DNA from: an uncultured Gammaproteobacteria bacterium
GTDB lineage: Bacteria; Patescibacteriota; Patescibacteriia; Patescibacteriales; UBA12465
Direction of reading: 5' to 3'
DNA: 63,268 nucleotides
Assembly (NCBI GenBank): GCA_964404515.1
Contig: CAYOKE010000001.1
Location: 1 to 63,268 of the forward strand
Shown here one piece after another: positions 21,865 through 47,586 of the stretch. The position numbers were made by a program, and so were the translations under genes. Below the pieces are notes generated by a model. That model ran no database searches, had not been told where the DNA came from, and saw only the letters and a program-made list of their open reading frames with translations. How positions within the stretch are numbered: position 1 is the first letter of the stretch; each line of letters opens with the position of its first letter.

Positions 21865-22529
21865 AGAAATTTGAAAAAAAAGTATATCTTAGAACGATAA
21901 TAGCGGAGTTTCCGACGCCAAAACGGCAAAGGACTACCGCTACCAAGGTGGTTTATGGCTATTTCCTGGCAGATTTCCAGACGGTAGCCTGCCTGGCGGA
22001 CACGACGGCACAGGTCCACGTCTTCGAAATACATGAAATAATTTTCATCCCAACCGCCGATTTTCTTAAACAGCGGCCGAGGAATCGCTAAGGCCGCACC
22101 ACTCACCCAGCCCAAGCCGCCGGAACTATTCCGGCTATAAGCATAGGGCTGGTCTGTCCCGTCACGCAGTAAGCGGGGCGCGAGAATCCCGATCTTTTGA
22201 TCGGCAGCGAAGCGACCAGCTAGAATCGGCAGGATATCGGACTTTAGAAGCGTATCGCTATTCAAGAAAAATAGGTAATCGCCATGGGCGACGGCGGCCC
22301 CTAGATTGTTGGCAACGGCAAAACCGCGATTCTTATCTGCTACGACGAACTTTATCCTGTTCCCATACTTCTCTCGCAGCTTCTCCCCGCTTCCGTCGCC
22401 GGAGTGGCTATCGACCAATATGACTTCGGGACGGCCGGCAGCAAGAAACCTGAAAATCGACTGCAGGCAGCGGTCAGTCAAATCGAAAGTCCGGTAATTG
22501 ACGATGATGATCGAAAAGGTCTCAGTCAT
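21861..22529 (-). CDS. Family 2 glycosyltransferase
   Basis: 222 aa. FSIIIVNYRTFDLTDRCLQSI, VILVDSHSGDGS and FFLNSDT (DxD-like) are typical of GT2 (rhamnosyltransferase-like). Confidence 0.75.
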   Translation of the reverse strand: MTETFSIIIVNYRTFDLTDRCLQSIFRFLAAGRPEVILVDSHSGDGSGEKLREKYGNRIKFVVADKNRGFAVANNLGAAVAHGDYLFFLNSDTLLKSDILPILAGRFAADQKIGILAPRLLRDGTDQPYAYSRNSSGGLGWVSGAALAIPRPLFKKIGGWDENYFMYFEDVDLCRRVRQAGYRLEICQEIAINHLGSGSPLPFWRRKLRYYRSKIYFFFKFL

Positions 22530-29060: not shown

Positions 29061-29094
29061 AAAACTCCCTTTATTGGGAGTTTTTTGTTTTTTT
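29061..29094. terminator. Bidirectional rho-independent terminator between the convergent clpP and the 349-aa surface-protein gene
   Basis: AAAACTCCC-tttatt-GGGAGTTTT followed by TTGTTTTTTT. The A-run on the other side would serve the minus-strand gene. Confidence 0.7.
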
Positions 29095-29104: not shown

Positions 29105-30154
29105 CTACTGCTTGATAAAGAAGGAATTGATCATCAACCCGAAAATATTAGGATAAGCGACGCGATCATCAACGGCCGGGATATAAGAGATGACATAGAT
29201 ATTCTTACGGTCCTGGCCGGTCAGATAAAAATTCAACCCATCTTCGCCCATTACGCCCTCCCAGCCATCGGCGCTCTTGAGTTTATCATAAGTGACGACG
29301 ATATCCGGGAAAGAAGTTTCATACCAACCCAGGATGCTCTGCTTATCAGCGTTGTCCTGGATGGAAATCTGGACCAAAGAGTTATCCGGCGCCGTAAATA
29401 TCATGGTCGTTTCGTTATTTAGGGCTTTAACCGGCCAAGACTTGGGATAGAGGAGTTCATAGCCGTAAACCTTATCCTGATAACGCGCTAAATTCTCATT
29501 AGCTGATAACCGTCCCGAGCCGCTGGGATTATAATTGTTATTCACTTCCACCAAATCTTGGTAGCTGTTGCCGTTGGTATCTGTCGATGAAGCGTTGGTC
29601 CCTAAAGCCGTTTCTTCGTCATCGAAAAGACCGTCCCCGTCGGTATCAAGGAGTGGCGGTAGACTAGAAACGGAGCTAGTAGCCGAAGCCGAGGTGCCTG
29701 GGTTAAGGTCGATAATCTCAATTGGCACGGTTGAAGTGACAACCGATGTCGTGGTGGTTGGGACAATCCCCGACGTCGTCGCTGTCTTGGCCTGGCTAGG
29801 CGGCTGGTTAGAGCTAGCCAGGATATCCGGGGCACTAGTCTTAGCCGCCGGCTTAATAATGAAACGGTAGCTGATATAAACTAAAGAACTAATTACTACC
29901 AAACCTCCAATAATAATCAGCAGCCCGACCGCTTTAAAATTATTCTTGGCCGGAGCTACCATCCCTGATGAGCCGACTGGGGCTTTCACGGCCGCTGGGC
30001 CGGACGCCACAAAACGCGACTGGCTAGGCATATTATGGATTATAATCTCCTGGTCGACTTTGGCGGAATTATCCTGCTCTTTATTCTCCTTATTGTTCTT
30101 CAGTATATTGCGGCGCATAGCGTTAATTGAAAAGCAAGAAGGCAACCAAGGCAA
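29105..30154 (-). CDS. Single-pass membrane protein with an S/T/P-rich stalk, a thrombospondin-type-3-like Ca-binding repeat and a C-terminal globular domain
   Basis: 349-aa ORF (a likelier start is MRRNIL at ~30118). TM GLLIIIGGLVVISSLVYISY, T/S-rich linker, DTDGDGLFDDEE, YNPSGSGRL motif, then a ~140-aa beta-rich domain. Confidence 0.65.
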   Translation of the reverse strand: MPWLPSCFSINAMRRNILKNNKENKEQDNSAKVDQEIIIHNMPSQSRFVASGPAAVKAPVGSSGMVAPAKNNFKAVGLLIIIGGLVVISSLVYISYRFIIKPAAKTSAPDILASSNQPPSQAKTATTSGIVPTTTTSVVTSTVPIEIIDLNPGTSASATSSVSSLPPLLDTDGDGLFDDEETALGTNASSTDTNGNSYQDLVEVNNNYNPSGSGRLSANENLARYQDKVYGYELLYPKSWPVKALNNETTMIFTAPDNSLVQISIQDNADKQSILGWYETSFPDIVVTYDKLKSADGWEGVMGEDGLNFYLTGQDRKNIYVISYIPAVDDRVAYPNIFGLMINSFFIKQ

Positions 30155-30329: not shown

Positions 30330-31058
30330 TTAGCGGTTGCCGGATAATTTCCCTGCCCCATTCGGATTATAACCATTCTTGACTTCAGCGCCGTCTAGAT
30401 AGCCGTCGCCGTCGGAATCGGAATTCAGAGGATTAGTCTGGTAAATCCGCACTTCCTCATAATCATTTAAGCCGTCATGGTCGGTATCAGAGACATTATA
30501 GTTCGTATGATATTCTTTTTGCTCCTCGCTATCGGTCAAACCGTCATTATCCGTATCGACGATCGGTTCGGTAGCAGTTGCTACGACTGTAGTCGTCGCT
30601 AAGGGGACATTAACGCCCGGTATCTCCGGAATCTGACTGGCTGGGCTAGTGGAAGAGGCGGAAAGGCTCGGCTGCTGTTCATTATCATTAGTTTTCACCT
30701 CCGGAGTAGCCGTTGCTTTGGGTTTAGCAACAATATCAGTATTAGTCGCTTTCTTGCCGTTTAGAACCTTGGTGTCAGTCGCAAAGTCGCTAGTGGCCTT
30801 GAAAAACCGTTCATAGACTAGATATCCGACTAGAACCAAAATAACTGCGCCAACAACGATCAGAGTAATTGTCAGCCATTTAGCGCCGCGTTTTTTCTCG
30901 GGCTCTTCTGCAACCAAGTTTTCAGCAGCGGTCAAGCCAACTTTCTTAGCTTCTATCTCCGACGGCGACGAGGGATTATCCTGGGACTTGTCTGTTTCGG
31001 CGAAAATATCGTCTACTGCCGGCCGGCCGGGCTTCTGATTATTCAGATCATTGAACAT
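30330..31058 (-). CDS. Single-pass membrane protein with three thrombospondin-type-3-like Ca-binding repeats
   Basis: 242 aa. TM LTITLIVVGAVILVLVGYLVY, S/T/P linker, DTDNDGLTDSEE, DTDHDGLNDYEE, DSDGDGYLDGAE. Ends GYNPNGAGKL, paralogous to the neighbouring gene. Confidence 0.65.
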   Translation of the reverse strand: MFNDLNNQKPGRPAVDDIFAETDKSQDNPSSPSEIEAKKVGLTAAENLVAEEPEKKRGAKWLTITLIVVGAVILVLVGYLVYERFFKATSDFATDTKVLNGKKATNTDIVAKPKATATPEVKTNDNEQQPSLSASSTSPASQIPEIPGVNVPLATTTVVATATEPIVDTDNDGLTDSEEQKEYHTNYNVSDTDHDGLNDYEEVRIYQTNPLNSDSDGDGYLDGAEVKNGYNPNGAGKLSGNR

Positions 31059-31119: not shown

Positions 31120-31446
31120 TTATTTCTGACGCGGGCTAATTGTCTTCAATTGCGCTGCCGGATCAGTGATGATCTCGCTATCATTCTTAATAATCTTATA
31201 AACCGCGGCTTCGCCCTTATCACCCCTGGTCAGGACCTGGATCTTCAATTCGTCAGAAATTCCTAATTGCGCCTTCTCTTCTTGTCCCATAAACTGTGGT
31301 ACATAAGGAGCGGCCGGTTGGTTAGGATTGCCCGGTTGATTATTATCGGTAACCGTCGTCTGGGAGAGCCGCCAAATGATCAAGATGGCGATAGTAATGA
31401 TGAGGATGGCGGCGGAAATGATGATTATGGTCTTTTTATTTCTCAT
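31120..31446 (-). CDS. Small N-terminally anchored protein, unknown function
   Basis: 108-aa ORF with one N-terminal hydrophobic helix (IIIISAAILIITIAILIIW). Confidence 0.45.
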   Translation of the reverse strand: MRNKKTIIIISAAILIITIAILIIWRLSQTTVTDNNQPGNPNQPAAPYVPQFMGQEEKAQLGISDELKIQVLTRGDKGEAAVYKIIKNDSEIITDPAAQLKTISPRQK

Positions 31447-31506: not shown

Positions 31507-34500
31507 TTAATGGTTAATACACTGGCCATTGAAACAGATCTGACCTGGACAGCAATATTCAGCGCCGCATTGATTCGCAGGCTTATTATTACTGCAGAAT
31601 TTATTAGACGCTGGACCACAACAAGTCTGATTCGTATTACAGCAGAGTCCGCCGCAGCAAGTTTCAGTCTCTGCCTTGCAACAAGTGTTGTTATTCGGAT
31701 TCTGCGCCTGACAGACATCAAAATTAATGGGAGCGGAAGGTTCGCCGCAACGGCAAGTATTCCTGGCATAGCACAAACCTTCCAAGCAAACCTCCCCGGT
31801 TTGGCAAGCACAGCCGGTCGTCCCGCCGCAAACCTGACAACCGTTTGGCCCATTACAATTCGTCGTATCAGCTACGCATTCTCCGTTATTATTACAAATC
31901 GGGGTGCTGCCAGAACAAATACAATCATTGGGGCAACTCTGGCAATTCTCGCCGATATTGGCTTGGCAATTTCCGTTACCACAGGAATTTTGGGTCGTAT
32001 CGCCCACACATTCCCCGCTGTCATTACAATCCTGCCCATCTGGGCACAGGCCGCAGGTGCCGCCACAGCCATCAGGGCCGCACTGCTTACCGTCGCAGTT
32101 AGAAGTACAGGTGACGTTAGTCTGAGCGCAATCGTTAGGGCAATTACCCTCCGTTTCGATCACTCCCTGACATATGGTGTCGCCGCAATATCCGCCGCCG
32201 CTTGAGACTGCCTTGAAAATACAATAATTATCAGAAACAATCGGATTCGGTGTGTCTACACCGGGTCCAGTAATGCAACCATATTGTACTTCCGGGCTGC
32301 TATCCGCTGGATTGTCAGTCACTCCGCTATTACCATCACAATCTTCATAACCGTCATTATAGATGCCGCCTCGCCCCTCGCCGTTAGGGGACTGCTTCTG
32401 ACCGTCGCCACAAAAGTCACTTACCTTGAGAGTGAAACTGCGCGTCGTGGAAGCGCCGTATTCATTGGTAGCTTTGATGGAGATGGGAGTGCCGGTCGAA
32501 GAAGCCGTCGGAGTGCCTTTTAGATAGACATGACTAATCACTTCGCCGACCGCACCAGCCGCTCGAGGCTTATAGACGTCGGATAAAGAACGGAAGACGC
32601 CAGCCCAGAAAGAGAGGGAACGCAACGGCCGAGAATTCAAGGTTTGATTTGTGTTATTCGGATCCGTCTGGGTTTCGGAAATTTGGATGCTGAGTCCGGC
32701 CGGCAAGGTGCCGCTGGAATAGCTAAGCGTATGGCTGTCTTGCCCGGTCTGGCCTAAATAACAGGAATAATCTCTATTGAGCCGGGCGGAAGTCGGGCAA
32801 TTGAAATCAAGCTGGGGATTTTCCGGCCGCAAACGGATCCTGAATTTTTTAGTAGAAGAAGAATTGAAGCTATCGGTCACCTTGATGTTATAGATGAAAT
32901 CCGTATCCGAAGGGAATTTATGACTAGCCGGACTGGTCGGGATTGTCCCCTGAAAATTGACCTGATAGCGGTTAATGCCGATTGAACTGAAAGTCTTCGT
33001 TAGAAAAGAACCGGCCAAAAGATCAAACGGGCCGCTGATCTGAGTCAGGGAATAGGCGGCGCTGGGATTACTTATGTTCTTCCCGGAAAAATTGAAGCTG
33101 TAGCCGAAAGGGGTGCCTGGATTAAGTATATATTCGCCGTCTGCAGCCTCGATAAAGAGAGTCGAATTAGTTATTTGGATAGGAGTCGAGGTTGTCAAAA
33201 CCCCGCCCTGTCCGTCAGAGACGGTCAAGGTGGCGTTATAGGTCCCAGCTGGACCGGCTTTCTGGGCATAGATCTTCTTCTGATTCTGGCTATTGGTGTC
33301 TTTGAGCGTCGGCGGCCGGTTATTAGCATTATTATTCTTCCAACCAGTCCAATTAGTCCCATTGGTATTCAAACTCCAAGTTAGGGTATTGCCTTCTTGA
33401 TCAACGACTTTCACGAAACCGTTGAATTCCTGGCCAGCTTCTCCGGTCAATGACTTATCCACGAGGATTGGCGCCGTATTCGAAGCTTGGCCGCTAAAAA
33501 TGATTCCGGTCGCTGTCACGCAATTGGAACTATTCGGGTCATCTTGGTCAAAATGGTAATCCAGCGAAGATTCCCGGCTTTCCATCACTGCACATAAACT
33601 ATAATTTGAACCGTTTGTGTCAGTCTTATAGACCATGGCATAGCTACCGAACGGCAACATCAAGTAGCCCGGTGTCGGATCATAGACGAAACGCTTAGCT
33701 TCTTTATTCCAGCAAGTCTTGAAATCATAGCCCGCGCAATAGCCCAGGCGATTTATCGGATCAGAGAAACTCTTAGCAACCGCCAAGTCGGATAATAGAT
33801 TGTCCGTCCAGCTTGGCCAAACGGAAACCGTATGGTTAGCCAGATAAGAACCAGCTGCCAGCAAGGGGTAGCGACCATTAGCACTCTTGAACGAGAAAAG
33901 AGCTTCCTTAAGTTCGGCCAACTTGCCAAGCCGCTTCAGATCGCGAGTAATCTTGGCTTTCACGCTATTACAAAAGAAATTATTCGGGCAGTCGGAATCC
34001 GTCAAACAATTCTTCGGATTCTTCAAGAGGCAGGAGCTGGAAGCGACCGTTGACGTAGCACAAACCTGACCGCTGCCGCAATCGGAATCGCTATTGCAAC
34101 TTACAGAGGAGATGGCGCAAGTCGGAGACGGGTTGGTATTTTCTCGGAGATTAGTATTGAACTTCCAATGGGAAACGAGTTGGCCGAGGATATCGGCTGT
34201 CTTAGCAGCTGAATCCTGGTTATATGATATCAGATAGATATTGGTATATATCTTATCGTCTTCAGGGTCGACGTTAGCGGCATTAACATAGACTGTCCGG
34301 CCATCCCGAACCGCCTCATAGCCATCGACGGTGAGGGTCTGCGGCGAACCAATAAATCCTTGACTCTCATACCAACGATGAATGCTGTAATGGTTGGGGT
34401 TAGGTAGGACCCGGACGCCGATAGCGTCATTTGCCGTTTCGGCCCGGGTGACGGAAAAGCCGATAACTATAAAAAATACAACCAATATGCATGAGATTGA

Positions 34501-34527
34501 GACCAAAAACTGTTTATTTTTTTTCAT
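31507..34527 (-). CDS. Giant secreted cysteine-rich protein (about 1006 aa) with a pilin-like globular domain, Ig-like domains and a C-terminal cysteine-knot-like repeat array
   Basis: I prefer the start MKKNKQFLVSISCILVVFFIVIGFSVTRAETA (signal peptide, ATG at 34525-34527); the ORF track extends to 34587. Pseudopilin-like segment TRDLKRLGKLAELKEALFSFKSANGRYP. He_PIG-like Ig motif (LPAGLSI, YLKGTPTASSTGTPISIKATNEYG). CGDG...EDCDG and repeated CGxGxCxxxxExCxxCPNDC modules. The last ~300 aa contain roughly 70 Cys. Confidence 0.8.
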   Translation of the reverse strand: MKKNKQFLVSISCILVVFFIVIGFSVTRAETANDAIGVRVLPNPNHYSIHRWYESQGFIGSPQTLTVDGYEAVRDGRTVYVNAANVDPEDDKIYTNIYLISYNQDSAAKTADILGQLVSHWKFNTNLRENTNPSPTCAISSVSCNSDSDCGSGQVCATSTVASSSCLLKNPKNCLTDSDCPNNFFCNSVKAKITRDLKRLGKLAELKEALFSFKSANGRYPLLAAGSYLANHTVSVWPSWTDNLLSDLAVAKSFSDPINRLGYCAGYDFKTCWNKEAKRFVYDPTPGYLMLPFGSYAMVYKTDTNGSNYSLCAVMESRESSLDYHFDQDDPNSSNCVTATGIIFSGQASNTAPILVDKSLTGEAGQEFNGFVKVVDQEGNTLTWSLNTNGTNWTGWKNNNANNRPPTLKDTNSQNQKKIYAQKAGPAGTYNATLTVSDGQGGVLTTSTPIQITNSTLFIEAADGEYILNPGTPFGYSFNFSGKNISNPSAAYSLTQISGPFDLLAGSFLTKTFSSIGINRYQVNFQGTIPTSPASHKFPSDTDFIYNIKVTDSFNSSSTKKFRIRLRPENPQLDFNCPTSARLNRDYSCYLGQTGQDSHTLSYSSGTLPAGLSIQISETQTDPNNTNQTLNSRPLRSLSFWAGVFRSLSDVYKPRAAGAVGEVISHVYLKGTPTASSTGTPISIKATNEYGASTTRSFTLKVSDFCGDGQKQSPNGEGRGGIYNDGYEDCDGNSGVTDNPADSSPEVQYGCITGPGVDTPNPIVSDNYCIFKAVSSGGGYCGDTICQGVIETEGNCPNDCAQTNVTCTSNCDGKQCGPDGCGGTCGLCPDGQDCNDSGECVGDTTQNSCGNGNCQANIGENCQSCPNDCICSGSTPICNNNGECVADTTNCNGPNGCQVCGGTTGCACQTGEVCLEGLCYARNTCRCGEPSAPINFDVCQAQNPNNNTCCKAETETCCGGLCCNTNQTCCGPASNKFCSNNKPANQCGAEYCCPGQICFNGQCINH

Positions 34528-37500
34528 ATTTATTAGCATTGGGGATTCGGTCATTGCTTGGGATAGGACTCTCGTTTTTATTAGCATTGGGGATTCGGTA
34601 ATTGCTTGGGATATTGATGATTATCTCGCCACTCTTAGGGCTCTCGTTAGCAGAGGCATCGAGAGCGGTCAGGGAGAAATAGTTATTGCCAAACGGCAAC
34701 TCATCAAATCCTAGGGTCAGGCTGGTTCCTTGGCTAGTCGAATCGAACGACTGACCGTATTGCTTAGAGTTGATACCGTGATACAGACGATAGAATATGG
34801 TGTCGTCGGAATTAGCATCCCAGCTGAACTCGACGGTCGAGGAAGCGATAATCTGTGCCTCGATGCCGGTCGGAGTGGCCGGCGAGGTCTTATCGGTCGG
34901 CTTAGCCGTTTTTTCGTTTGACAGCTGGCTTTCCGTCTTATTAATAGAGACTACCGACACCTTGAAGATATAGGAAATATTGTTAGTCAAATTGTTAATT
35001 GTCGTCTGACAATCATAGACGTTTCCCGTTAGGCTGCAGGCGTCAGCCGGAGTGACTTCCTTGACCGACATCGTGCCTTGACCGGACTTCAGATAGTAAA
35101 CCCTATAACTCCCGACTTGGTCGGAATTGGAACGCCAGTTGACTTGGACTTCGCCGCTAGTCTGTCGATCGGTCGCCGCCGTAATCTCTCCGCCCGGTAA
35201 GACAGCCTCCCGGAAAAAATATGCCTCCTTCAGGACGCTCCAAAGACAGAGGCCATCCGGGTTGCCATTACCATCTTTATCCGGCCCGCAAAGGCTGTTT
35301 AAGGTAGAGCATGGAGTTTTATCAGCACTGCAAATTAATGAGCTACTCTGCCCCCTGATGACCGCTGAATTTATTATCGCTGGTAGATCGTCTAGGGTAT
35401 TAGCATTGCCATAGTCACGGCAATAGTAGAACTTGTAATTATAATTCGCACAGGGGTCGCCACCAACGCCTTGGCAGGTATCTTTCCAGGGCGACCAAGC
35501 TCCGTTGCTGGCTACCGGCGGCCAAGGATTATTGCAGATGAAGACAAAGAGATCGGAAACGGCTGGCAAATCGTTACCAGTCGAATAGACATTGCAGCAG
35601 TTGTTGGAGCAGTTATTGGCGTCACAGACGCAATTCACGCTGCTATCGCAGGAAGTCAGGAAACGCCCCATATCGACAGTCGCTGTTAATTTGGTTTCAC
35701 TATCGGTTACTCCGTTCTGGGCGGTAGCGAAGGTGCGATTCGGCCCCAAACCGTTAATAGACCCGATAGAGACGATGCTGGGGTCGTTCACTTGCCAATC
35801 CCAATCCCAATAATACCCGGTAACCGGCCGGAGGGCCTGGCCATCGGCGCTATAGGCCCAAACGGAGAAAACCTTATCCTTATCAGCTTTCGTATCAAAA
35901 GTCTTGTTATTCACATCCGTATCGTTTTCGTCCAGGGAATTATCCGTTGTCTTGAAGAGATAGGAATCGGGGTTGGTGGCCACATGGTCTATAGCGCAGA
36001 CTCCGCCATTCGGGCCTTGGTCCGACAAGGTAGTAAATTTAATAATCTGGGAATTTTGATAAGATCGGTTATTGAACTTTATCATGCTTCCCGAGACATA
36101 AGAATTAATGGTTTTGTCAAAATAGCCCTTACCATTAAAGCCGATACCAGCCAAACTCAAGATGCCAGACTGGCTATTTAGGTTCTCGTCGCCAAGAACA
36201 ATCATGTAATAATTAGTAGCCGGGGATAATAATTTAATAGGCGCGAATATCAATTTAGTAAAACTACCGTTTTCTTCCCCGCTAATTGACCCAGGGATAG
36301 CGCAATATAACTTTTTCGGATCAGTTATCTTCGCGACCGCTCGATCAGAAAAAATTGTAGTCAATCCGCGCCAGATTGTCTTTATTTTCTGGCTAAGGCG
36401 GGCCAATACCCCTCGATCCTGGGCTGCTAATAATTCCTGCAGTGCCCCGCTATCCGTGATAAAGGTACCGGCCGGGCAGACGCCGTTGCCATAATCGCGT
36501 TCTTCCAGTAACAAGGCATTACTAATGAGGCTAGTGACATCCATATTCTGGGTAAAGCTGACCTGGATAACCGCATTACGGCAGACATCCTCGGCTAAAT
36601 GGGCGGGTGAAGTCGAAGCAATCTCTGGCCGCGCCTGGCAACAGGTATCCGTTCCGCAACCGATGGTTTTTGGATGCCCACAATCTCTATCTTTCTCACA
36701 ACCGCAGCACAACCCGCGGCCAGCGCCGCTGCAATTACCTCGATCCGCCTGGCAATACAAAGTCGGCGTTTCCTGCGTGAAACAAGAATCCGGTTTCTGG
36801 CCTGGCTGGCAACAGCATGCTCCGCAATCTGGGTAAAAACCTAACGTGCCCGTAGCAGTCAAGCAGCTGAACTTCCCCAGGTTGCAAACACTAAGATTAC
36901 AGCTGGAAGTAGCTGTCCTACTGCTGCAATCCAGGCCGGCGCCGCCTTCTTCATTCGCACAACGGAAGGCACAGGTCGAAGTACTAATAAAGCGGCCGGT
37001 CGTCGTCGCGTTTAAATCACACAATTTAGGATCATCTTCACGGCAATCGTAATAAGCGCAATAGCCGGCGTTCGATCCGTTTTCAATCTTAGCACCGCTC
37101 TTACAAGTGTTGGTATTCTTGTCGAAACAGCAGACAGTTTCTGCCGAACAAGCGGTCTGGTTGCCATTGAAAGTAGAACAATAATCACCACCCGGGTTAT
37201 TGGCGCAACCGGTCGTGCATTCGTCTATACCACCATATAACCCTAACTTCAAGGGGGTAGAGGTAGCGCATAGTGTCAAATCAGCGCCCTGGCAGTCATA
37301 ATAAGCACAGTAGCCATAATCAGTGGAGTTATTTTGGTTATTGCTGACTAGGCGGCCATCGCCGCCGCGACAGATATCGTCAGTAGTAGTAGCGGTATGT
37401 TTGGCGTCGATGCAGCAGACTGAACTATGGCCGGCACAATTGTCAAAACTAGTCAGATTAGAACAATCCGTGCAAATCCCTTCAGGATGAGCATCGCTGA

Positions 37501-40500
37501 TATCGCAATATTTACCACTATGACCGGTGCAGTTACAGGCGGCATCATGCGCTTCTTGACTAGTTCCCACCAAACCACAGCCGGAACAATTGCCATAAGT
37601 ATTGCTGGAATTAGAATAGCCAGCCGGGCAAGTCGTAACCGGGATGGAAGGATATTTGATAATAACTATCCCTGGTTGTGCTCCGTTACCAGTCTTTTCG
37701 GTCTGGCCGCTCGCGCCACCGCCCGGATTATTATAGCCCGCGCCGCCGCTGCCAGGAATAACAGAAGAGTTTCCTCCTCCGCCGCCGCCATAAGCAATGC
37801 TAGTACCAGTAATATCAGAATAAGTTCCATCGCCGCCGTTACCCCCTCTATCGTTGCTCCGGGCATCAAAGCCTTTCTGGCTATCTCCGCCACCGCCGCC
37901 GGAGGCAAAACCATTATTTTTATACCTTATGCCGCCAGCTTTACCTGAACCACTCATGCCGCCAGTGCCCGGTGAGACCGCCTTTTTGCCTCCAAAGGCA
38001 GTAACCGATTGGAATGAAGAATTGCGGCCGTCAGTATTAAAAGGCCAAATTTTACTTTTGCTTACACCACCACTACCGACGACAACCGGAATGTTGCCAA
38101 CCTGGATCGTCATTGATTTCTCTATTACTTCGCCGCCGCCACCGCCCGCATCATAGACTCCGTTGGATTCTCTGCCGCCCGCGCCGCCACCGCCCGCGCC
38201 GCCACCGCCGCCGACCACCAAGACATCCGCATTTACCGGGGCAGTCACCTTCAACACGCCGGAATTTCGGAAAGTATGTATGCAATTACCACCAATTTCA
38301 GCTACAATCCCGCCCGTTGCCGAGCAGCTGGGATTGATGCAATTCCCCGCGCCATCGCAGCAAATGCCAACGCTACCATTGCTTCCGGCCAAGTCCGAAC
38401 CGCAACGCCCGGTGCATTTCAAGCCGGCGCAACAATCTTCTTGATCATGGCCAATACGGCAACAGCAGTCGCAAGATGGTTCAACCTCGACGATACATTT
38501 ATCACCAACGCATTTGGCGCCAGTCTGCGCACAAAGCTTATCGGACACGCAGTAGCCAAGAGAATTAATCTCTGCACAGGTAAAATCGCCAGAACATATA
38601 TCGCAGTGGGAATTATTTTCGACACAACGGTCATTAGGCATCCTAGTCCAGCCAGTCGGACAGGATCCATTAATCGTTATCTCCCACTGACTATTACTAT
38701 TGCAAACTTTCTGGACTGAATATTCCCCGAGGTTGATTGTCTCGGGCAAATCGCAGTTACCGTTCACACATTTATCAATCGCCTGGTTATAGGTGCAGGA
38801 CGAAATTGTACAACCCGGGACTGTCTGACAGGTAGAATCGCAATTTCCGACTATTTTATCGTACTTCTGAGAAGCCGAAGAGCAGGCACCAGGGCTATTG
38901 GGGCATAGCGCGCCCTGATAGCAGGAACCGAGATATTTAGACATGCCGGCGCAGCTTAAAAAATTGGTGCTCGTGCCGAAGCCGGTGCTGAAACTCCATT
39001 CAAAGACCGAGGTCGGCACGTCGATGAAGCAATCTTCTAGGGTGTCGACGCAACGGCCGTGTTTATAGGTAGCAGCCGGGCAGCAGACTTGCGTACCGCA
39101 ATCAGCATCGGCCGTACAGCTGCCGACTTCGAAATTTAATTCATTGCCCCATTCATTATCTTTTACCACTCGGACCGGACCGGAGATTGCTCCGGCCGGC
39201 ACAACCGTCTTAGTTTGGTCAGCTCGGCCATCCTTAGCAATCGTCCCGGTTGCCGACTGTTCATAATTAAATTTGATTAAGCCTTCTTCTCCGACCTTAC
39301 CGAAATATTCCCCCCAAAGAGTAACCGGGGTCGCAATCGGACCACGGACGGGATTAATCTTGCAGAGACTAGTCTTCAAGGCCAGGTTCTTATCGGCCTG
39401 AAAAGTATTAGGATTCAGCTTCTGCGTATCGATCGCGACCGGCCCCAAGTTGATCTTAATCACATACTTCCCGTCGGCCAAGCCGGCCGGGACCTTGACA
39501 ACAATCTGATTGTTCTTCCAGACTGAATTCAAACAAATTTCCGGAAAATCATAAGCGGCTTCTGTGTCGCCGAAGTAGACATGAGAAGAGCCGCGCGTAT
39601 TGCCGAAACCGTTGCCCGTGATAGTCACATATTGGCCGGCACTTCCTTTGGTCGGGCTGAATGAGAAGATATATGGGCTTTCGCCCGGTTCCTGATCTTT
39701 GGTGAATTTCAAATAATTACTTTTTTCTTTATTGCCGCTGATATTATTAACGACAAAGCTACTGGAATCTCCGGACTTGATATTAGGCGTAGTCGAAGTG
39801 CCAGACAAGCCGGAGGGAGTATTAAATTGCGAATCCAGGCCGCGAACGTTGCTCTCATAATTCCCAAAGTAAGCGTCGCTCGAATAAAGATTAACGCCCT
39901 GATAGCCGATTTCGGAGTTTAGAACCCCTCGGTTCGGGTCGATATAACATAAGCCGGGGCGTACGATGGAGTTTGCCTCAAAATCATCAATCTTCGGGCC
40001 ATAATCATCATCGGTCTGATCGCTCAGGTTATCTTTATTGACCACTTTCAACGGCCCGGTCGTTATATCGCTCGGGACAGCGATGACAATCTGAGTATTG
40101 GTCCAGGAGCTAATACAGGCCGGGTTCAGTTCCTTAGGGTCTCTTCCTAATTGGGAATTGCTGCCCGAGCCGACAAACACCACTTGACTGCTGGTTGGCG
40201 AATATTCTCCAAAATTCTTACCGAAAATCGTAATTAGATTATCCGTCGCACCATTAGGCGCAGAAAAATTACAGGCCGTCTGGCAGTCGCTATCCTTAGT
40301 ACAAGATTTATCCGTATTTTCCTGGCAAAAGCCGCCGACCGGGCTGACTTCCGTAATAACCGGCAAACCGAAACAAGTACAAGTACCAGAATCACAGGTC
40401 AAGTATTTAGCGCAGCGGCTGTCATCCGGTTCACAAGTCTCGCTAGAAGAACTACATGGATCGCCGATTTCGCCTAGTGGTTTGCAACCGCAGTCTTCCC

Positions 40501-41074
40501 TGTCACAATAATCAGTATCGTCGCACATCTGCAGCACGGCTTGGCAACCAGACAATTCGTTACCATCGCAACTAGTCTGGCCACAATTGGTGCAGCCGCC
40601 GCAATCCGAACCTTCGCAAGAACCCCAGGAACCGCCTAAGCAAGTCATGACACCATAACAACCGCAAGATTTAGTCTCACCGTCGATGCAGCCATTGCCG
40701 CCATTTATCGCGTTCCCTAATTTATCAAAGATGAAGATGGTAATCGCCCAAGCCGACAGAATAATTACTAAGCCAATAACACCGTTCCTGAGTTGCATCT
40801 TAGCCTTAGCTATCTTATCCTCATCGCCGCCGGAAAGCATCCATGAATATCCACTCCAGAGGATGATTACTATAGCAACCAAGCCCAAGACTCCGAGAAA
40901 GACATTGATTATCCGTCCGACTACGGTCCGAACATCGGTCGTCGTTAGAGAATTAGCCAGGCCGTTATTCACTGCTTCGGTTCCAAAATCCTGGGCTAAG
41001 GCTAAGCGCGCCAAAAACAGGCCGCCGAGAAGGAGGCTAAAAACAACCAAGTACTTGATGATTCTTTTGGACAC
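34514..41074 (-). CDS. Giant (2186 aa) surface protein: VirB2/TrbC-like pilin hairpin, then Cys-rich modules, 3 IPT/TIG-like domains, a glycine-rich domain, an Ig-like domain and 2 FN3-like domains
   Basis: GTG start. aa 1-122: signal peptide (ALAQ/D) plus two TM helices separated by SGGDEDKIAKAK. IPT-like: PVITEVSP...ITIFGKNFG, PYIFSFSPTKGSAGQYVTITGNGFG, INPVRGPIATPVTLWGEYFG. Gly-rich: VLVVGGGGGAGGGGAGG...GIVIIKYP (aa ~926-1142). C-terminal FN3-like: GEVQVNWRSNSDQVGSYRVYY and PTGIEAQIIASSTVEFSWDANSDDTIFYRLYHG. Well over 100 Cys. Confidence 0.85.
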   Translation of the reverse strand: MSKRIIKYLVVFSLLLGGLFLARLALAQDFGTEAVNNGLANSLTTTDVRTVVGRIINVFLGVLGLVAIVIILWSGYSWMLSGGDEDKIAKAKMQLRNGVIGLVIILSAWAITIFIFDKLGNAINGGNGCIDGETKSCGCYGVMTCLGGSWGSCEGSDCGGCTNCGQTSCDGNELSGCQAVLQMCDDTDYCDREDCGCKPLGEIGDPCSSSSETCEPDDSRCAKYLTCDSGTCTCFGLPVITEVSPVGGFCQENTDKSCTKDSDCQTACNFSAPNGATDNLITIFGKNFGEYSPTSSQVVFVGSGSNSQLGRDPKELNPACISSWTNTQIVIAVPSDITTGPLKVVNKDNLSDQTDDDYGPKIDDFEANSIVRPGLCYIDPNRGVLNSEIGYQGVNLYSSDAYFGNYESNVRGLDSQFNTPSGLSGTSTTPNIKSGDSSSFVVNNISGNKEKSNYLKFTKDQEPGESPYIFSFSPTKGSAGQYVTITGNGFGNTRGSSHVYFGDTEAAYDFPEICLNSVWKNNQIVVKVPAGLADGKYVIKINLGPVAIDTQKLNPNTFQADKNLALKTSLCKINPVRGPIATPVTLWGEYFGKVGEEGLIKFNYEQSATGTIAKDGRADQTKTVVPAGAISGPVRVVKDNEWGNELNFEVGSCTADADCGTQVCCPAATYKHGRCVDTLEDCFIDVPTSVFEWSFSTGFGTSTNFLSCAGMSKYLGSCYQGALCPNSPGACSSASQKYDKIVGNCDSTCQTVPGCTISSCTYNQAIDKCVNGNCDLPETINLGEYSVQKVCNSNSQWEITINGSCPTGWTRMPNDRCVENNSHCDICSGDFTCAEINSLGYCVSDKLCAQTGAKCVGDKCIVEVEPSCDCCCRIGHDQEDCCAGLKCTGRCGSDLAGSNGSVGICCDGAGNCINPSCSATGGIVAEIGGNCIHTFRNSGVLKVTAPVNADVLVVGGGGGAGGGGAGGRESNGVYDAGGGGGEVIEKSMTIQVGNIPVVVGSGGVSKSKIWPFNTDGRNSSFQSVTAFGGKKAVSPGTGGMSGSGKAGGIRYKNNGFASGGGGGDSQKGFDARSNDRGGNGGDGTYSDITGTSIAYGGGGGGNSSVIPGSGGAGYNNPGGGASGQTEKTGNGAQPGIVIIKYPSIPVTTCPAGYSNSSNTYGNCSGCGLVGTSQEAHDAACNCTGHSGKYCDISDAHPEGICTDCSNLTSFDNCAGHSSVCCIDAKHTATTTDDICRGGDGRLVSNNQNNSTDYGYCAYYDCQGADLTLCATSTPLKLGLYGGIDECTTGCANNPGGDYCSTFNGNQTACSAETVCCFDKNTNTCKSGAKIENGSNAGYCAYYDCREDDPKLCDLNATTTGRFISTSTCAFRCANEEGGAGLDCSSRTATSSCNLSVCNLGKFSCLTATGTLGFYPDCGACCCQPGQKPDSCFTQETPTLYCQADRGNCSGAGRGLCCGCEKDRDCGHPKTIGCGTDTCCQARPEIASTSPAHLAEDVCRNAVIQVSFTQNMDVTSLISNALLLEERDYGNGVCPAGTFITDSGALQELLAAQDRGVLARLSQKIKTIWRGLTTIFSDRAVAKITDPKKLYCAIPGSISGEENGSFTKLIFAPIKLLSPATNYYMIVLGDENLNSQSGILSLAGIGFNGKGYFDKTINSYVSGSMIKFNNRSYQNSQIIKFTTLSDQGPNGGVCAIDHVATNPDSYLFKTTDNSLDENDTDVNNKTFDTKADKDKVFSVWAYSADGQALRPVTGYYWDWDWQVNDPSIVSIGSINGLGPNRTFATAQNGVTDSETKLTATVDMGRFLTSCDSSVNCVCDANNCSNNCCNVYSTGNDLPAVSDLFVFICNNPWPPVASNGAWSPWKDTCQGVGGDPCANYNYKFYYCRDYGNANTLDDLPAIINSAVIRGQSSSLICSADKTPCSTLNSLCGPDKDGNGNPDGLCLWSVLKEAYFFREAVLPGGEITAATDRQTSGEVQVNWRSNSDQVGSYRVYYLKSGQGTMSVKEVTPADACSLTGNVYDCQTTINNLTNNISYIFKVSVVSINKTESQLSNEKTAKPTDKTSPATPTGIEAQIIASSTVEFSWDANSDDTIFYRLYHGINSKQYGQSFDSTSQGTSLTLGFDELPFGNNYFSLTALDASANESPKSGEIIINIPSNYRIPNANKNESPIPSNDRIPNANKYEKK
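34529..34613. repeat. 37-nt direct repeat in two copies with a 48-nt period, at the 3' end of the 2186-aa gene and 5' leader of the next gene
   Basis: 34529-34565 versus 34577-34613 are identical at 36/37 positions. On the minus strand they encode the duplicated peptide PSN(Y/D)RIPNANK. Confidence 0.9.
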
Positions 41075-41090
41075 AAAAAATCAAGATTAA

Positions 41091-43760
41091 TTATTTGCAA
41101 TTACCATCCGCCCCTAAAGTGCTGGTAGCTGTGCCAAAACAGCAGGACGGATTATCGGCTGTCGCCGCGCAATTAGGCGCTACGCTCGGCTTATAGCAAT
41201 TCTGATAGATATCCTTGACCCCAGAACCAACCTGGGCCTTATAGGTGACAGATTGGGAAAAATTACTATGAAATATCCGGGTAATCGTCGTATCTGGTTC
41301 GCCATCCAGGGGAGACGAATCTAGGTTCTCACTCAGGATCCAATATCCTAATGGCGACGGGGAAGCGCTGCGCAAGTTGACTAGCTTATGCTCGAAAGTG
41401 CTGGTTCCGCTCTGGACCAAGGTACTGCCAGTCCTAAGGGTACTATTCATCATCAAGGCGTTGAAATTAATCTGAACCTCATCCGCCAAAGCAACTTCTG
41501 TCTGACCCTGGGAAATATTGACAAAGGTGATTTGCGGCGGATCGATAGCAATCTTATCATTTATATAGAAAGACCATTTATACTTATCTTTCTTATCTAT
41601 ATTCTGTGTCGGCGGCAGGTTATCGTTATAGAAATCTATCGGCCCGTCGGCGTAGATATCTCGATCACCATCCAGAGAGTTAATAGCGGCATCGACGATA
41701 CCGTCCAAGTTGGTCAGGTTAGCCGTCGGGTAATTCTTATTCTGCTCGTTCTGGCAAGTCTTATGCTCCAAAGGCGAAGAAGAGCAGGTCCGGAAAGGAT
41801 TATAAGAAATACAGTCGTTATCAGTATCACAGGTTTTTAAATCCGCTGCCACCAGTTCGACTGACAAATGGCTATTAGCCGGCAAGCAGTAAATTTTTTC
41901 ACCGCAGCCGTTCATGCCGCATTCCTGGTCAGAAATGAATTCGACCGTCTTGTAACCGTTAGAAATCATGAACTTCCCGCCTAAGTAATTACCGACGCAA
42001 GCATTGCTCTGACATTTGTACGAACGACAATCTTCGTTTTCATTACAATAGGTGCTAGCCGGGGAGCTGGAGGCATCGGCATTAACGACCTGAATATAGC
42101 TCGCTACTTCGCTAGCTAGGCCGGAAACGGTTACCGGATTAATCGCTTCATTAAAATTAATCTGAATAACGGAATTCATCGGCCGATCCTTCCTATCCTT
42201 AACTTGACTGCTTTCCTGACGATTTACCCCACCAGAAAACGGTTTGATTGCCAAGGCTTGGTTGTTGTTAGTTGCGAGGACGATATTATTACCTGTTTCC
42301 CCAGCAACTTTAGCAGTCAAAAACACTGAGTTATTCTTGCGATCGACGTCTATCTGTTCATGGCCGCTCAATTTCGCTTCGATATTGGCCGCTTGGATGT
42401 TACTGTCGCATGCCCCAGACGGAACGGCGATATTATTGTTAGCTGAAGAAGTGGCGAAGGTATAGATCACCGACCCAATTGTTAGGGTATCAGCTAGCTG
42501 TTCTGGCTTCAGAGCGATTGTCCATAGGCTCCCAACTTGATGATCAGTTGCCTTGAAGGTGAAATAGCCGGTGAAAACAGCAACACCGTTGCTGTCAAAG
42601 TCGGCTATACCCAACAAAGCATCATTGCCATCGAATAATTGGGCCTTATCAGTCGCCGGGACAGCGACTTTGAACTTATTTATCGTTCCATAGTAGCTAA
42701 GGGTTATTTCTGGTCCGGCAGGAACGATAGAGACGACTTCAGCCGGCGAATAGGTCTGAGGACAAGAATTGACAGTAATCGTTCCCTTAGCCGCAATCGC
42801 CGATGTCACTTCTCTGTAGACATCTTTTTCGTTGTCAGGCGTCGGAAAGATCTGCCCGGCTACAGTCTGCGGCGGCGCTAAATCGAAACTAGTATTAACC
42901 AAGAATTTCCATTCTACATAGTTGTTATTGCAGGTAGCAAACATGGAAGTGCCGTCCAATTTCTTGAGCTGGTTAGTAAAACGGACGGAATACCAGGTAT
43001 TTTCAACTTGGGAACCGAGGGGATCGACCGGCGTCAGGACTAGAGTTTTGCCACCACCCGCCACGTTCACCAAAATATTGGTAATATTAGAATTAGGGTC
43101 AGGGCAACTGCCGTTCTTACAGGCGTCGCCTAGTTCTGTCTTATAAATCCTGATTGCCATAGGATTCACCTTATTGCAAGCCGTCTGGTTGCAGCCGCAG
43201 GCTTCGCCTTGATCGTCGACGCAAGCCGATTCTAAATCTATCTGCTCCTTGAAAGTTACCATTATCGAAGTGTTGCGCGGGACGTCCTTCTGGTTATCAG
43301 TCGGGTAATAGTCGTCAATCGTACAGGCGCCAATCGCCCCAGTCCCAGCATTGGTGAAACCGCCGCCGCCAAAATTTCCGCCATTACCATTAATGGCGCC
43401 GGCCAACTTGGTTAGCAAGAAAGTGACTATCGCCCAAGAACAGACGATGATAAGTAGACCGATAGCCGCATTCTTTAGGATATTTCTAGCCCGACCGATC
43501 TTTTCTTCGTCGCCACCGGAAGTCATCCACACGAATCCGGCATAAATTACTAGGATGACAGCAATCGCTCCTAATAATGACAAAACGATCTGGATAATCC
43601 GGCCGATTATGATACGCGGGTCGGTAGAGGTCAAAGAATTAGCTAGACCATTGCTGACCTCCTCTAAACCAAAATTGGCCTGGGCTAAAGCAAAATCAGC
43701 CACTCCGAACATTATCAAGAGGCTGAAAACTAGGATGATTAATTTAACTTTTTTAGACAT
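41091..43760 (-). CDS. Large (889 aa) surface protein: VirB2/TrbC-like pilin hairpin fused to Ig-like (SbsA/Big-type) domains and a Cys-containing ectodomain
   Basis: aa 1-125 are about 55% identical to the N-terminus of the 2186-aa protein (GLANSLT.TD, GRII, SGGDE(D/E)KI, SWAI). They are followed by a G-rich linker and Ig-like segments (YYPTDNQKDVPRNTSIMVTFKEQID; RPMNSVIQINFNEAINPVTV). Confidence 0.8.
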   Translation of the reverse strand: MSKKVKLIILVFSLLIMFGVADFALAQANFGLEEVSNGLANSLTSTDPRIIIGRIIQIVLSLLGAIAVILVIYAGFVWMTSGGDEEKIGRARNILKNAAIGLLIIVCSWAIVTFLLTKLAGAINGNGGNFGGGGFTNAGTGAIGACTIDDYYPTDNQKDVPRNTSIMVTFKEQIDLESACVDDQGEACGCNQTACNKVNPMAIRIYKTELGDACKNGSCPDPNSNITNILVNVAGGGKTLVLTPVDPLGSQVENTWYSVRFTNQLKKLDGTSMFATCNNNYVEWKFLVNTSFDLAPPQTVAGQIFPTPDNEKDVYREVTSAIAAKGTITVNSCPQTYSPAEVVSIVPAGPEITLSYYGTINKFKVAVPATDKAQLFDGNDALLGIADFDSNGVAVFTGYFTFKATDHQVGSLWTIALKPEQLADTLTIGSVIYTFATSSANNNIAVPSGACDSNIQAANIEAKLSGHEQIDVDRKNNSVFLTAKVAGETGNNIVLATNNNQALAIKPFSGGVNRQESSQVKDRKDRPMNSVIQINFNEAINPVTVSGLASEVASYIQVVNADASSSPASTYCNENEDCRSYKCQSNACVGNYLGGKFMISNGYKTVEFISDQECGMNGCGEKIYCLPANSHLSVELVAADLKTCDTDNDCISYNPFRTCSSSPLEHKTCQNEQNKNYPTANLTNLDGIVDAAINSLDGDRDIYADGPIDFYNDNLPPTQNIDKKDKYKWSFYINDKIAIDPPQITFVNISQGQTEVALADEVQINFNALMMNSTLRTGSTLVQSGTSTFEHKLVNLRSASPSPLGYWILSENLDSSPLDGEPDTTITRIFHSNFSQSVTYKAQVGSGVKDIYQNCYKPSVAPNCAATADNPSCCFGTATSTLGADGNCK

Positions 43761-43857
43761 TAGGGCGGAATAAAAAAGTTTTTAAATTATGCCAATTGTG
43801 CTATAATTTAGGATGATTTTATTATAACATAAAAACCGAAAAAGAAAAACGGCCCAT

Positions 43858-47013: not shown

Positions 47014-47586
47014 TTAATTAGTTTTATATTGCGGCCAATAATTGCCGTCGAAATAAGTTATCTCGTCGAGCGGCCAGCCGCGGAATAGTATTTTACCGAT
47101 GATGAAACTTTTGTTAACTGGGCCAAAGAAACGCGAATCGCGCGAATTGCTCCGATTATCCCCCAAGACGTAATATTCATCTGGCCCCACAACCATCCGC
47201 TGGTCGCTCGGGCTTTCGGTCTTCAGACTAGAGGGCAGATAATCTTCTTCAAGCACGAATCCATCCGGCTGTTCAGCATTGAAAATTGTGACTTCGCCAT
47301 CTTTAACCTGCACCTCTTCGCCCGGCAAGCCGATTACCCGCTTGATGAAATATTCCTGTGGATTGCGCGGGTAGCGGAAGACGACGACTTGACCGCGCTG
47401 CGGCGCGTTAAAGCGGTACGAGATCTCGTCGATGATCAGATACTCCCTGTTATGGAAATTCGGCTCCATAGAAGCCCCCTGGACATAGAATGGCTGGATC
47501 AGATAATAGCGGACCGGAATTATGATTGCCGCCGAGATGGCTAATACTTTTACTATTTCCCAAACAAAAAGGAGAAACTTGCGCAT
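47014..47586 (-). CDS. lepB: Signal peptidase I
   Basis: 190 aa. N-terminal TM, catalytic Ser box GASMEP, Lys box IKRVIGLPGE, box E VLGDNRSNSRDSR. Confidence 0.9.
   Translation of the reverse strand: MRKFLLFVWEIVKVLAISAAIIIPVRYYLIQPFYVQGASMEPNFHNREYLIIDEISYRFNAPQRGQVVVFRYPRNPQEYFIKRVIGLPGEEVQVKDGEVTIFNAEQPDGFVLEEDYLPSSLKTESPSDQRMVVGPDEYYVLGDNRSNSRDSRFFGPVNKSFIIGKILFRGWPLDEITYFDGNYWPQYKTN

Follow-up and report, generated by a model that had tools for sequence, protein, structure and literature searches.

What do three adjoining genes for giant, cysteine-rich and apparently exported proteins do for a patescibacterium, and how are their products held at its surface? The locus, here called A-B-C, lies on contig CAYOKE010000001.1, of which a stretch of 63,268 nucleotides (nt) was analyzed (the window; all coordinates below are numbered on it). 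Our results firmly identify A-B-C as a conserved operon for exported, hairpin-rooted, cysteine-rich surface proteins with many immunoglobulin (Ig)-like domains. As to the task of these proteins, we lean slightly towards a cell-surface contact apparatus in which A and B are membrane-rooted stalks, C is docked by its N-terminal domain and bears a variable tip, and the products of the downstream genes D, E and F sit at the base. Such an apparatus may serve host attachment or adhesion, as an earlier note on this DNA had supposed; for this A, B and C would presumably co-assemble.

Gene models and export of A, B and C

The locus comprises three genes.

41091..43760, minus strand: gene A, 889 amino acids (aa), ATG start; signal peptide, VirB2-type pilin hairpin, glycine linker and a chain of Ig-like beta-sandwiches
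34514..41074, minus strand: gene B, 2186 aa, GTG start; signal peptide, pilin hairpin, Cys-rich modules, TIG, glycine-rich insertion, Big_5 and fn3 domains
31507..34527, minus strand: gene C, 1006 aa; signal peptide, conserved N-terminal domain, Cys knots, helix-rich domain, four Ig/cadherin-like domains and a variable Cys-rich tail

The three open reading frames (ORFs) are co-directional, with a 16-nt gap between A and B and a 14-nt overlap between B and C when C starts at 34527, in agreement with the coordinates of the earlier note. The ORF of C extends over 31507-34587; counted from its first ATG it encodes 1026 aa, and from that at 34527, 1006 aa. The latter is the start used in an identical database protein (P0241) and in orthologues. 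Cysteine makes up 3.0% of A, 6.0% of B and 6.1% of C. Hydropathy analysis found three N-terminal hydrophobic segments in A and in B (a signal peptide followed by two transmembrane (TM) helices) and a single one in C, in agreement with the export predicted earlier for all three proteins.

All three ORFs are free of internal stops, and those of A and B are identical in an independent assembly (the Logan assembly of SRR10769896). The best 120 homologues listed for A measure 816-925 aa, are nearly all full-length and are 49-82% identical. The long relatives listed for B measure 1638-2318 aa, mostly 1800-2250 aa, at 45-78% identity, and those listed for C 885-1663 aa. Together with the lengths of the ORFs, this conservation places the genes far beyond chance; the identical ORFs in the second assembly and the full-length or similarly sized homologues exclude assembly error and pseudogenes.

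Synteny and conservation of the locus

To place the locus among related genomes, A was used as the query in a species-level scan with one genome per GTDB species. The scan returned 414 related stretches, and locus counts were taken on the best 80 of these, in all of which A was matched over nearly its whole length at 42-62% identity. A divergent RelA gene stands upstream of A in 74 of the 80 loci, A is followed by B in 75, and the full order A, B, C is kept in 61. The remaining 19 are mostly ended by contig ends; two have room for C and lack it, and four have room for B and lack it. The synteny across related Candidate Phyla Radiation (Patescibacteria) genomes that the earlier note wished to see examined is thus present in most of them. 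Its assignment of the DNA to this radiation was also borne out by the source names of the homologues, which are Candidatus Falkowbacteria, Patescibacteria or Parcubacteria group; Falkowbacteria belong to the GTDB class ABY1 (PMC12102498).

The complete Falkowbacteria genome CP066698.1, one of those with this synteny, and two more long contigs have UvrD, RuvB, QueA, LepB, HisRS, divergent RelA, A, B and C in succession, with A of about 890 aa, B of 1903-1937 aa and C of 1009-1663 aa. Two of these three loci have enough downstream flank, and there a small gene of 90-117 aa and then a TSP3-repeat gene follow. The window itself has peptidase M16, a UvrD/PD-(D/E)XK helicase-nuclease, RuvB, QueA, signal peptidase I, HisRS and the divergent RelA/SpoT gene upstream of A, and ClpP, SecD, SecF, glycosyltransferases, PilD, FtsA, FtsZ, NrdR, NrdD and others downstream of the locus. 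Identity to CP066698.1 is 53% for A, 50% for B, 46% for C and 38% for D, compared with 67-85% for the housekeeping neighbours. In these sequence comparisons the locus evolves faster than its housekeeping neighbours yet shows clear purifying selection.

By its gene order and flanks, then, A-B-C is a vertically inherited core-genome operon of Falkowbacteria-type Patescibacteria and not a variable island. The earlier note had regarded the locus as a striking trait of one genome; it is instead shared, with fixed housekeeping neighbours. The length of A is near-constant (deciles 884-912 aa). Conservation over nearly the full length, apart from the tail of C and an insertion in B, speaks more for a conserved apparatus than for adhesins that diversify rapidly.

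The four loci with room for B and without it represent a second lineage, in which an A orthologue stands alone, which makes A the most widely kept component of the locus. In two of the stretches (L072, 10001-12685; L079, 10001-12586) the solitary orthologue is 861-894 aa long, 42-45% identical, and lacks B, C and RelA. Its neighbours in L072 are a PilT-like T2SSE ATPase and a PHP-domain protein on one side and RecA-MscL on the other; the ORF sizes in L079 match those in L072, the domains of the neighbours being read in L072 only. Two related genomes (L016 and L082) have room past B, with C undetected, and in L016 a D-like small gene directly follows B.

A and B begin with a VirB2-type pilin hairpin

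The N-terminal features of A and B are the following.

43680..43760, minus strand: A signal peptide, residues 1-27, with the predicted cut between FALAQ and ANFG; the hydrophobic segment covers residues 1-28
43392..43619, minus strand: A pilin hairpin, residues 48-123, consisting of TM1, the charged loop TSGGDEEKIGRAR and TM2; PF18895 match at residues 51-115
40715..40936, minus strand: B pilin hairpin, residues 47-120; PF18895 match of 45.5 bits

Similarity between A and B is confined to the first 132 residues, which are 46% identical. This shared stretch consists of a signal peptide ending in LAQ, a conserved outside peptide of 20 residues, (D/N)FG..V.NGL..L..TDPR, the TM1-loop-TM2 unit and a glycine-rich linker. 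By BLASTP, A, B and C are free of internal repeats and resemble one another in the A/B hairpin only. The A-x-A-like site LAQ is conserved in both families, which suggests that the signal peptides of A and B are cleaved.

Both hairpins match PF18895 (T4SS_pilin) above its cut-off of 26.6 bits (A, 41.1 bits; B, 45.5 bits). The TrbC profile PF04956 scored 26.9 bits in B, just under its cut-off of 27.9 bits, and the NCBIfam model 'Mbov_0395 pilin-like' gave 30 and 35 bits in A and B, below its cut-off of 40 bits. Hydropathy gives a signal peptide and two TM segments, and an AlphaFold2 model of A, built from a 70-sequence alignment, agrees with the paired helices. In this model, with a mean predicted local distance difference test score (pLDDT) of 83, helices occupy residues 48-79 and 85-123 and a low-confidence linker residues 120-136, after which a beta-rich multidomain body begins. 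The loop TSGGDEEKIGRARNILK carries K/R residues, consistent with the positive-inside rule and thus with a cytoplasmic loop.

Throughout the two families G75, W78, G83, K87, A91, G101 and W109 do not vary, and S81 is kept in at least 90% of sequences. The motif YAGFxWMTSGGxExKIxxAKxxLxNAxIGL is nearly invariant in both families and recurs in two-hairpin proteins and in short, possibly partial pilin-like proteins. Judged from these alignments, the hairpin is conserved beyond the needs of a plain anchor.

Ectodomains of A and B

Behind the hairpins the two proteins diverge into the following parts.

41094..43352, minus strand: A ectodomain, residues 137-889, beta-rich, with 26 conserved Cys
39398..39676, minus strand: B IPT/TIG domain, residues 467-559; PF01833, 47.2 bits, E 2.3e-12
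37580..38377, minus strand: B glycine-rich domain, residues about 900-1165; PF21722 (Gly_rich_2), 47.7 bits (cut-off 24.3 bits), profile match at residues 939-1141
36473..36634, minus strand: B Big_5 Ig-like domain, residues 1481-1534; Pfam
34931..35173, minus strand: B fibronectin type III domain, residues 1968-2048; fn3, 28.6 bits (cut-off 25 bits)

All 26 Cys of the A ectodomain are invariant or at least 90% conserved among 70 sequences, and this ectodomain is for this reason likely to hold structural disulfides. Pfam assigns Big_5 to A with 61.5 bits. In a Foldseek comparison of the A model with PDB structures, the top match was the surface (S)-layer protein SbsC (4uj6; E 1.9e-8), followed by macroglobulin-domain chains and CopC-like single domains; no pilin stood among the top 50 matches of this full-length model. 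Global TM-scores between A and SbsC are 0.10-0.12, which indicates a common Ig-like domain type and not a common architecture; low global values are expected for flexible strings of domains.

Identity in B stays at about 40-70% over nearly the full protein (60 orthologues; the same number was used for C), the exceptions being the glycine-rich region and the last 26 residues. Occupancy of the glycine-rich region is 0.01-0.09, and its carriers among the relatives listed are P0121, P0122, P0126 and P0142 only. On this alignment evidence the glycine-rich domain is to be read as a lineage-specific insertion, lacking in most orthologues. It matches the phage families phrog_2295 (E 8e-15) and phrog_863, 'tail fiber assembly', which suggests exchange of a domain between phage tail proteins and a cellular surface protein. 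A and C gave no PHROGs matches, hence no sign of phage origin apart from the insertion in B.

Pfam profile searches thus find each of the domains that the earlier note had named (T4SS pilin, IPT/TIG, Ig-like, FN3, glycine-rich and Cys-rich). Its 'exact domain combination' needs to be amended: the domains are present, but the glycine-rich part is specific to a lineage, so that the combination is not a conserved feature. Nor did it link the combination to a described system. What can be so linked is the hairpin, which is of the VirB2-like pilin type known from the patescibacterial type IV secretion system (T4SS; PMC12102498, PMC10633639). The adhesin-like character that it proposed agrees with the SbsC match of the A model and with the matches of C described below.

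Protein C and the downstream genes

Protein C has no pilin hairpin match, and three parts of it stand out.

34168..34425, minus strand: C N-terminal domain, residues 35-120; conserved more than any other stretch of the locus
32413..33510, minus strand: C chain of four Ig/cadherin-like domains, residues about 340-705; AlphaFold2 strands and Foldseek
31510..32412, minus strand: C Cys-rich tail, residues 706-1006; length and sequence variable

Against the 60 orthologues, residues 41-80 average 83% identity and residues 81-120 average 69%, and in three genome comparisons residues 41-80 are conserved above most housekeeping neighbours. The N-terminal domain has no Pfam match and no match among PDB sequences. 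At the other end, 49 Cys lie between residue 721 and the end (8-16 per 80 residues), and occupancy of the last ~165 residues (841-1006) falls to 0.38-0.69. A conserved proximal and a variable distal end is the pattern of fibres or adhesins docked on a conserved base and facing a variable partner, and the C alignment suggests such an arrangement.

The AlphaFold2 model of C (pLDDT 77.7) has a compact N-terminal domain, Cys knots, a domain with an initial 29-residue helix, four Ig/cadherin-like domains and a poorly modelled tail. Foldseek matched it to desmogleins, titin, PrgB Ig-like domains, RTX adhesin extender repeats and SbsC; against viral structures it returned generic Ig-domain matches only. 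Pfam gave only weak matches (He_PIG, Big_9, PKD, Dickkopf-like), and a profile of the C family against PDB sequences gave marginal PKD-like matches only (E 0.14 or worse). A motif, RDxKRxGxLxELKEALxxFKxxNGxYP, and a long helix at residues 189-217 had prompted the idea that residues 183-340 form a pseudopilin head of the type II secretion/type IV pilin kind. Neither Pfam up to E 5 nor a 15-orthologue profile against PDB returned anything, and the idea was dropped as unsupported.

Three small membrane protein genes follow C.

31120..31446, minus strand: gene D, 108 aa; N-terminal TM anchor (from sequence); after C in 34 of 61 loci
30330..31058, minus strand: gene E, 242 aa; bitopic membrane protein carrying Ca-binding repeats of the bacterial TSP3 type (TSP3_bac, E 1e-17); after C in 40 of 61 loci
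29105..30154, minus strand: gene F, 349 aa; bitopic membrane protein whose linker is rich in Ser/Thr, with a single TSP3-like motif and a domain at the C terminus; after E in several loci

D and E come after C in most loci that reach far enough, and a small gene stands at the position of D in two of the stretches (L002 and L006). E likewise has a Ser/Thr-rich linker in its sequence, and F has no Pfam match. On gene order, the unit probably extends downstream to D, E and F and ends near 29105, with the membership of F tentative.

A possible assembly and its relation to T4SS pilins

The contact apparatus that we favour could be built as follows. The Sec signal peptide of A and B would be removed and the two-helix hairpin inserted into the membrane, the short charged loop facing the cytoplasm and the two ends lying outside. 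A flexible glycine linker would then lead to a long external ectodomain, presumably stabilised by disulfides, an Ig-like chain in the model of A and, as predicted from sequence, Cys-rich modules with TIG, Big_5 and fn3 domains in B. C would be secreted and would dock to the apparatus by the strongly conserved domain at its N terminus; the stalk of Ig/cadherin-like domains and the variable tail rich in Cys would point outward, and D, E and F would hold the base of the assembly. The job of the assembly would be physical contact with another surface, e.g. that of a host cell. A and B might, moreover, associate with other VirB2-type hairpins or with a T4SS-like machine, as a pilus tip or as decorating subunits.

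Whether the hairpin is a still working pilin module, letting A and B join VirB2-type assemblies of a T4SS-like machine, is a separate question; we consider it a reasonable possibility that falls somewhat short of an even chance. It draws on the conserved loop and N-terminal peptide, on an anchor that is over-elaborate for anchoring, on VirB4, which is present in Falkowbacteria genomes (Table S1, PMC12102498), and on the position of the pilin ends. VirB2-like pilins share the topology signal, outside, membrane, inside, membrane, outside (S-O-M-I-M-O), and in solved pili both VirB2 termini are external and the loop lines the lumen (bioRxiv 10.64898/2025.12.18.695078). A C-terminal extension would consequently be external whether the hairpin lies in the membrane or in a pilus.

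Among known systems, the closest are the patescibacterial T4SS pilins themselves (Wang et al. 2023, PMC10633639; Quinonero-Coronel et al. 2025, PMC12102498), which share with A and B the PF18895 family, the topology of signal peptide plus hairpin, and the phylum. VirB2-like pilins (PF04956, PF18895) were reported in 1,948 patescibacterial assemblies, in arrays of 2-11 genes, with VirB2 treated as a small protein (PMC12102498); A and B, as two divergent adjoining paralogues, resemble a mini-array. Among the essential functions of Southlakia epibionticum are the T4SS, its pilin array and several adhesin-like surface proteins (PMC10633639). The known pilins are small, and neither paper takes up giant forms, whereas the hairpins of A and B bear 750-2050 extra residues. 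A pilin gene lies near virB4 in 1135 of the 1948 assemblies (PMC12102498); A and B, in contrast, stand among housekeeping genes, with no virB4 in 63 kb.

Several results speak against a pilin role or against the contact apparatus as such. No matches to the VirB4, VirB6, VirB3 or VirB8 families were found among the ORFs of the 63-kb window, so that nothing physically ties the locus to a T4SS. The hairpin profile found no solved pilin among PDB sequences; the tie to characterised VirB2 proteins is therefore through PF18895, the sub-threshold TrbC match and topology. VirB2 sequences are extremely divergent, and all characterised VirB2 pilins are small, one survey limiting its pilin search to 50-150 aa (bioRxiv 10.64898/2025.12.18.695078). 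With 889 aa in A and 2186 aa in B, the small mature size of VirB2/TrbC pilins (~50-150 aa) is exceeded in both, and an extension of 750-2050 residues per subunit may be incompatible with polymerisation. The great number of varied proteins that carry the hairpin (63,168 clusters; see below) fits a generic anchor equally well. Finally, the even conservation along A and B is unlike that of typical host-range adhesins.

A search of the window in six frames with hidden Markov models for further hairpin genes or small pilins returned A and B only. The only T4SS-related gene in the window is that of a type IV coupling protein (T4CP)/VirD4-like ATPase (12057-14428, minus strand; 598 aa), with TrwB_AAD_bind, TraG-D_C and a treble-clef zinc finger. 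It lies ~17 kb downstream of the locus (20 kb from B) and overlaps an RNase T-like exonuclease gene by 4 nt; its Pfam match begins at residue 22, which leaves little space for an N-terminal TM helix. T4CP-like genes number about two per patescibacterial genome and are usually distant from virB4 (PMC12102498).

Giant hairpin proteins in other genomes

To determine how common the design is, 1.84 billion representative proteins were searched with a hairpin profile built from 22 sequences of the two families. The profile matched 63,168 proteins, each standing for a cluster, at E <= 1e-3, and 18,620 at E <= 1e-10. Among the best 150 matches, a part of the list that is biased toward relatives of the query, about 67 have one N-terminal hairpin and a total length of 500-4978 residues, and about 60 have 2-17 tandem hairpins. 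Most of the short hairpin proteins inspected look like fragments cut at contig ends. Giant examples include a protein of 3821 aa with Big_5 and LVIVD repeats, one of 3384 aa with Big_5, TIG, DUF4215 and VWA, one of 4978 aa from Magasanikbacteria named LamG-like protein, and one of 2431 aa from a Parcubacteria-group genome named beta-1,3-glucanase. As judged from these sequences, the architecture of a hairpin with a giant ectodomain is clearly recurrent. In the tandem-hairpin 'polypilin' chains P0366, P0379 and P0361, 17 hairpins were counted in 1775 aa, 11 in 1147 aa and 6 in 552 aa, respectively.

In sequence databases some orthologues of A already bear the name 'pilin', and orthologues of B the name 'IPT/TIG domain-containing protein'. 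No giant hairpin fusions were found described in the literature on T4SS pilins in Patescibacteria, giant proteins, Vampirococcus VirB2 or VirB2-like adhesins, a search outside which most subscription journals lay. The more specific point is that a pilin hairpin heads giant, conserved, Cys-rich surface proteins; published surveys treat such pilins as small. This bears on two questions that the field holds open, namely the role of the essential patescibacterial T4SS and the reason why a monoderm T4SS has VirB2-like pilins (PMC12857230, PMC11665869). The role of the patescibacterial T4SS has been called completely unknown (PMC11665869), and its pilins have been singled out as the sole exception among monoderm T4SS (PMC12857230). 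If the hairpin works as a pilin module, it links the T4SS and adhesins, two functions essential for epibiotic growth, and supplies candidate substrates. If it is only an anchor, it represents a major undescribed mode of fixing large proteins to the cell surface. Either way, A-B-C is a well-conserved target for antibodies, cryo-electron tomography labelling and metaproteomics in an uncultivated lineage.

Alternative explanations

A and B could be static membrane-anchored adhesins in which the hairpin is recycled purely as an N-terminal anchor, with no T4SS or pilus role. We hold this to be unlikely, though it deserves to be taken seriously: there is no VirB4/VirB6-type gene near the locus, the folds match adhesin stalks, and hairpins are joined to very diverse ectodomains (LVIVD, VWA, LamG, glucanase-named) in tens of thousands of clusters. 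Moreover, at ~4 nm per Ig domain, which is our estimate, Ig chains of 750-2000 residues could span the cell wall without a pilus, the chain itself being seen in the model of A only. A cleavable signal peptide with two TM helices is, however, more elaborate than an anchor requires. In addition, the cytoplasmic loop and the short extracellular N-terminal peptide are nearly invariant in both families and are common to other hairpin architectures, which points to a conserved protein-protein or protein-lipid interaction.

A bolder version of the pilin-module reading is that the VirB2-like hairpin is a general display tag of Patescibacteria and that a T4SS-like machine pulls giant proteins with this hairpin out of the membrane and builds them into short pili or onto their tips. 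We regard this as speculative and rather improbable. If it were true, the main job of the T4SS-like machine would be to present varied adhesins and enzymes to the host surface, and A-B-C would be a conserved core cargo set in Falkowbacteria.

It is more doubtful still that A, B and C build a structural envelope layer, i.e. an S-layer-like or wall-spanning scaffold that shapes or protects the cell. SbsC is the best structural match of A and is also matched by C, and the Big_5 Ig-like domain is found in such proteins too. The near-constant length of A, the even conservation of A and B and the fixed core-genome position would suit a scaffold, as would the second lineage, which keeps A alone among housekeeping genes. 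Classical S-layer proteins, however, have few or no cysteines. A, B and C contain 3-6% Cys and no SLH or other wall-binding domain by Pfam, and the TM-scores of 0.10-0.12 to SbsC are low. The variable tail of C and the phage-tail-like insertion of B are, besides, traits typical of recognition parts that face outward. SbsC (Geobacillus stearothermophilus; PDB 4uj6, 5ftx) shares with A the chains of Ig-like beta-sandwiches and differs in lacking a TM hairpin.

Secreted toxins, enzymes or polymorphic effectors aimed at competitors or hosts are a very improbable alternative: in its favour are the Cys-rich, modular build of the proteins, the variable C-terminal end of C and the name glucanase given to some other giant hairpin proteins, but no catalytic or toxin domains were found in A, B or C by Pfam, NCBIfam or PHROGs, there is no pattern of immunity-like small genes, and conservation is full-length. 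An assembly chimera, which the earlier note had kept in view, or decaying pseudogenes, to either of which the 48-nt local duplication at the B/C junction might point, can be practically dismissed, as A and B are identical in the second assembly, the homologues of all three proteins are long, all 80 best loci match A over about its whole length with B in 75 and C in 61, and the frames hold no internal stops.

Comparison with other surface proteins and filaments

PrgB is anchored to the cell wall by LPXTG; no LPx[TSA]G sorting motif was found in A, B or C. As the adhesin of the Enterococcus pCF10 T4SS (PDB 8beg), PrgB has Ig-like domains and a monoderm T4SS as its partner, and the Ig chain of C matches these domains, a generic fold. 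It is encoded within a T4SS operon (bioRxiv 10.64898/2025.12.18.695078), whereas the A-B-C locus has no VirB4/VirB6-type genes in the window. A survey of 2025 found no PrgB-type adhesins or homologues in Patescibacteria (PMC12102498).

A likeness of design is offered by Streptococcus sanguinis PilB/PilC. In these modular type IV pilins a functional module is grafted onto a pilin module. A and B follow a similar logic, with a filament-subunit module and an outward adhesive or functional module, and the analogy is one of mechanism only. Type IV pilins are an unrelated class, with a class III signal peptide and a different assembly machine, and the class III motif (G/F-T-L-x-E, cut after G) occurs neither in A, B or C nor in any ORF of the window in six frames. 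The window does encode the prepilin peptidase PilD, although no type IV pilin gene was found by this motif. The phage tail-associated glycine-rich domains (PF21722; phrog_2295, phrog_863) that match B at residues ~900-1165 are, in B, an insertion in a cellular giant protein.

Neighbouring genes and minor features

The signal peptidase I gene lepB (47014-47586, minus strand) lies ~3.3 kb upstream of A, a synteny kept in 66 of 80 loci. LepB is the expected processing enzyme for the signal peptides of A, B and C, and its linkage may be coincidental among housekeeping genes. Two Wzy_C (O-antigen-ligase/O-oligosaccharyltransferase-type) membrane proteins are encoded at 21091-25729 and 55098-56381 (both minus strand), one of them TPR-fused. 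The TPR-fused protein adjoins two GT2 glycosyltransferases and PilD, and the other lies ~30 kb off. N-x-S/T sites number 10 in A, 29 in B and 17 in C, and all three proteins are Ser/Thr-rich. The Wzy_C and GT2 genes could be a set for glycosylation of surface proteins.

Rfam and tRNA scans gave nothing near the locus. A scan for promoters and terminators gave counts equal to those in shuffled sequence and was thus overall not above chance; two elements that match a consensus only are listed together with a repeat at the B/C junction.

43821..43829, minus strand: extended -10-like element TGTTATAAT, lying in the 97-nt spacer between A and the divergent relA/spoT gene, 61 nt before the start of A; consensus match only
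29061..29084, no strand assigned: bidirectional terminator-like hairpin between F and the convergent clpP gene, 9-bp stem, T-run on both strands; consensus match only
34524..34613, no strand assigned: 42-nt direct repeat with a spacing of 48 nt, copies 34524-34565 and 34572-34613, 93% identical; covers the stop codon of B and the start codon of C

The direct repeat accounts for the 26-residue tail of B, IPSNYRIPNANKNESPIPSNDRIPNANKYEKK, and for the spurious 1026-aa reading of C. This tail is unique to the present genome (occupancy 0.18).

Public metagenome-assembled genome records that hold the Patescibacteria-specific locus are often titled 'uncultured Gammaproteobacteria bacterium' (L008-L010, L016 and many others); 'Bacillota bacterium' and 'Saccharimonadales' occur as titles once each. 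Such names are probably placeholders or the result of mis-assignment.

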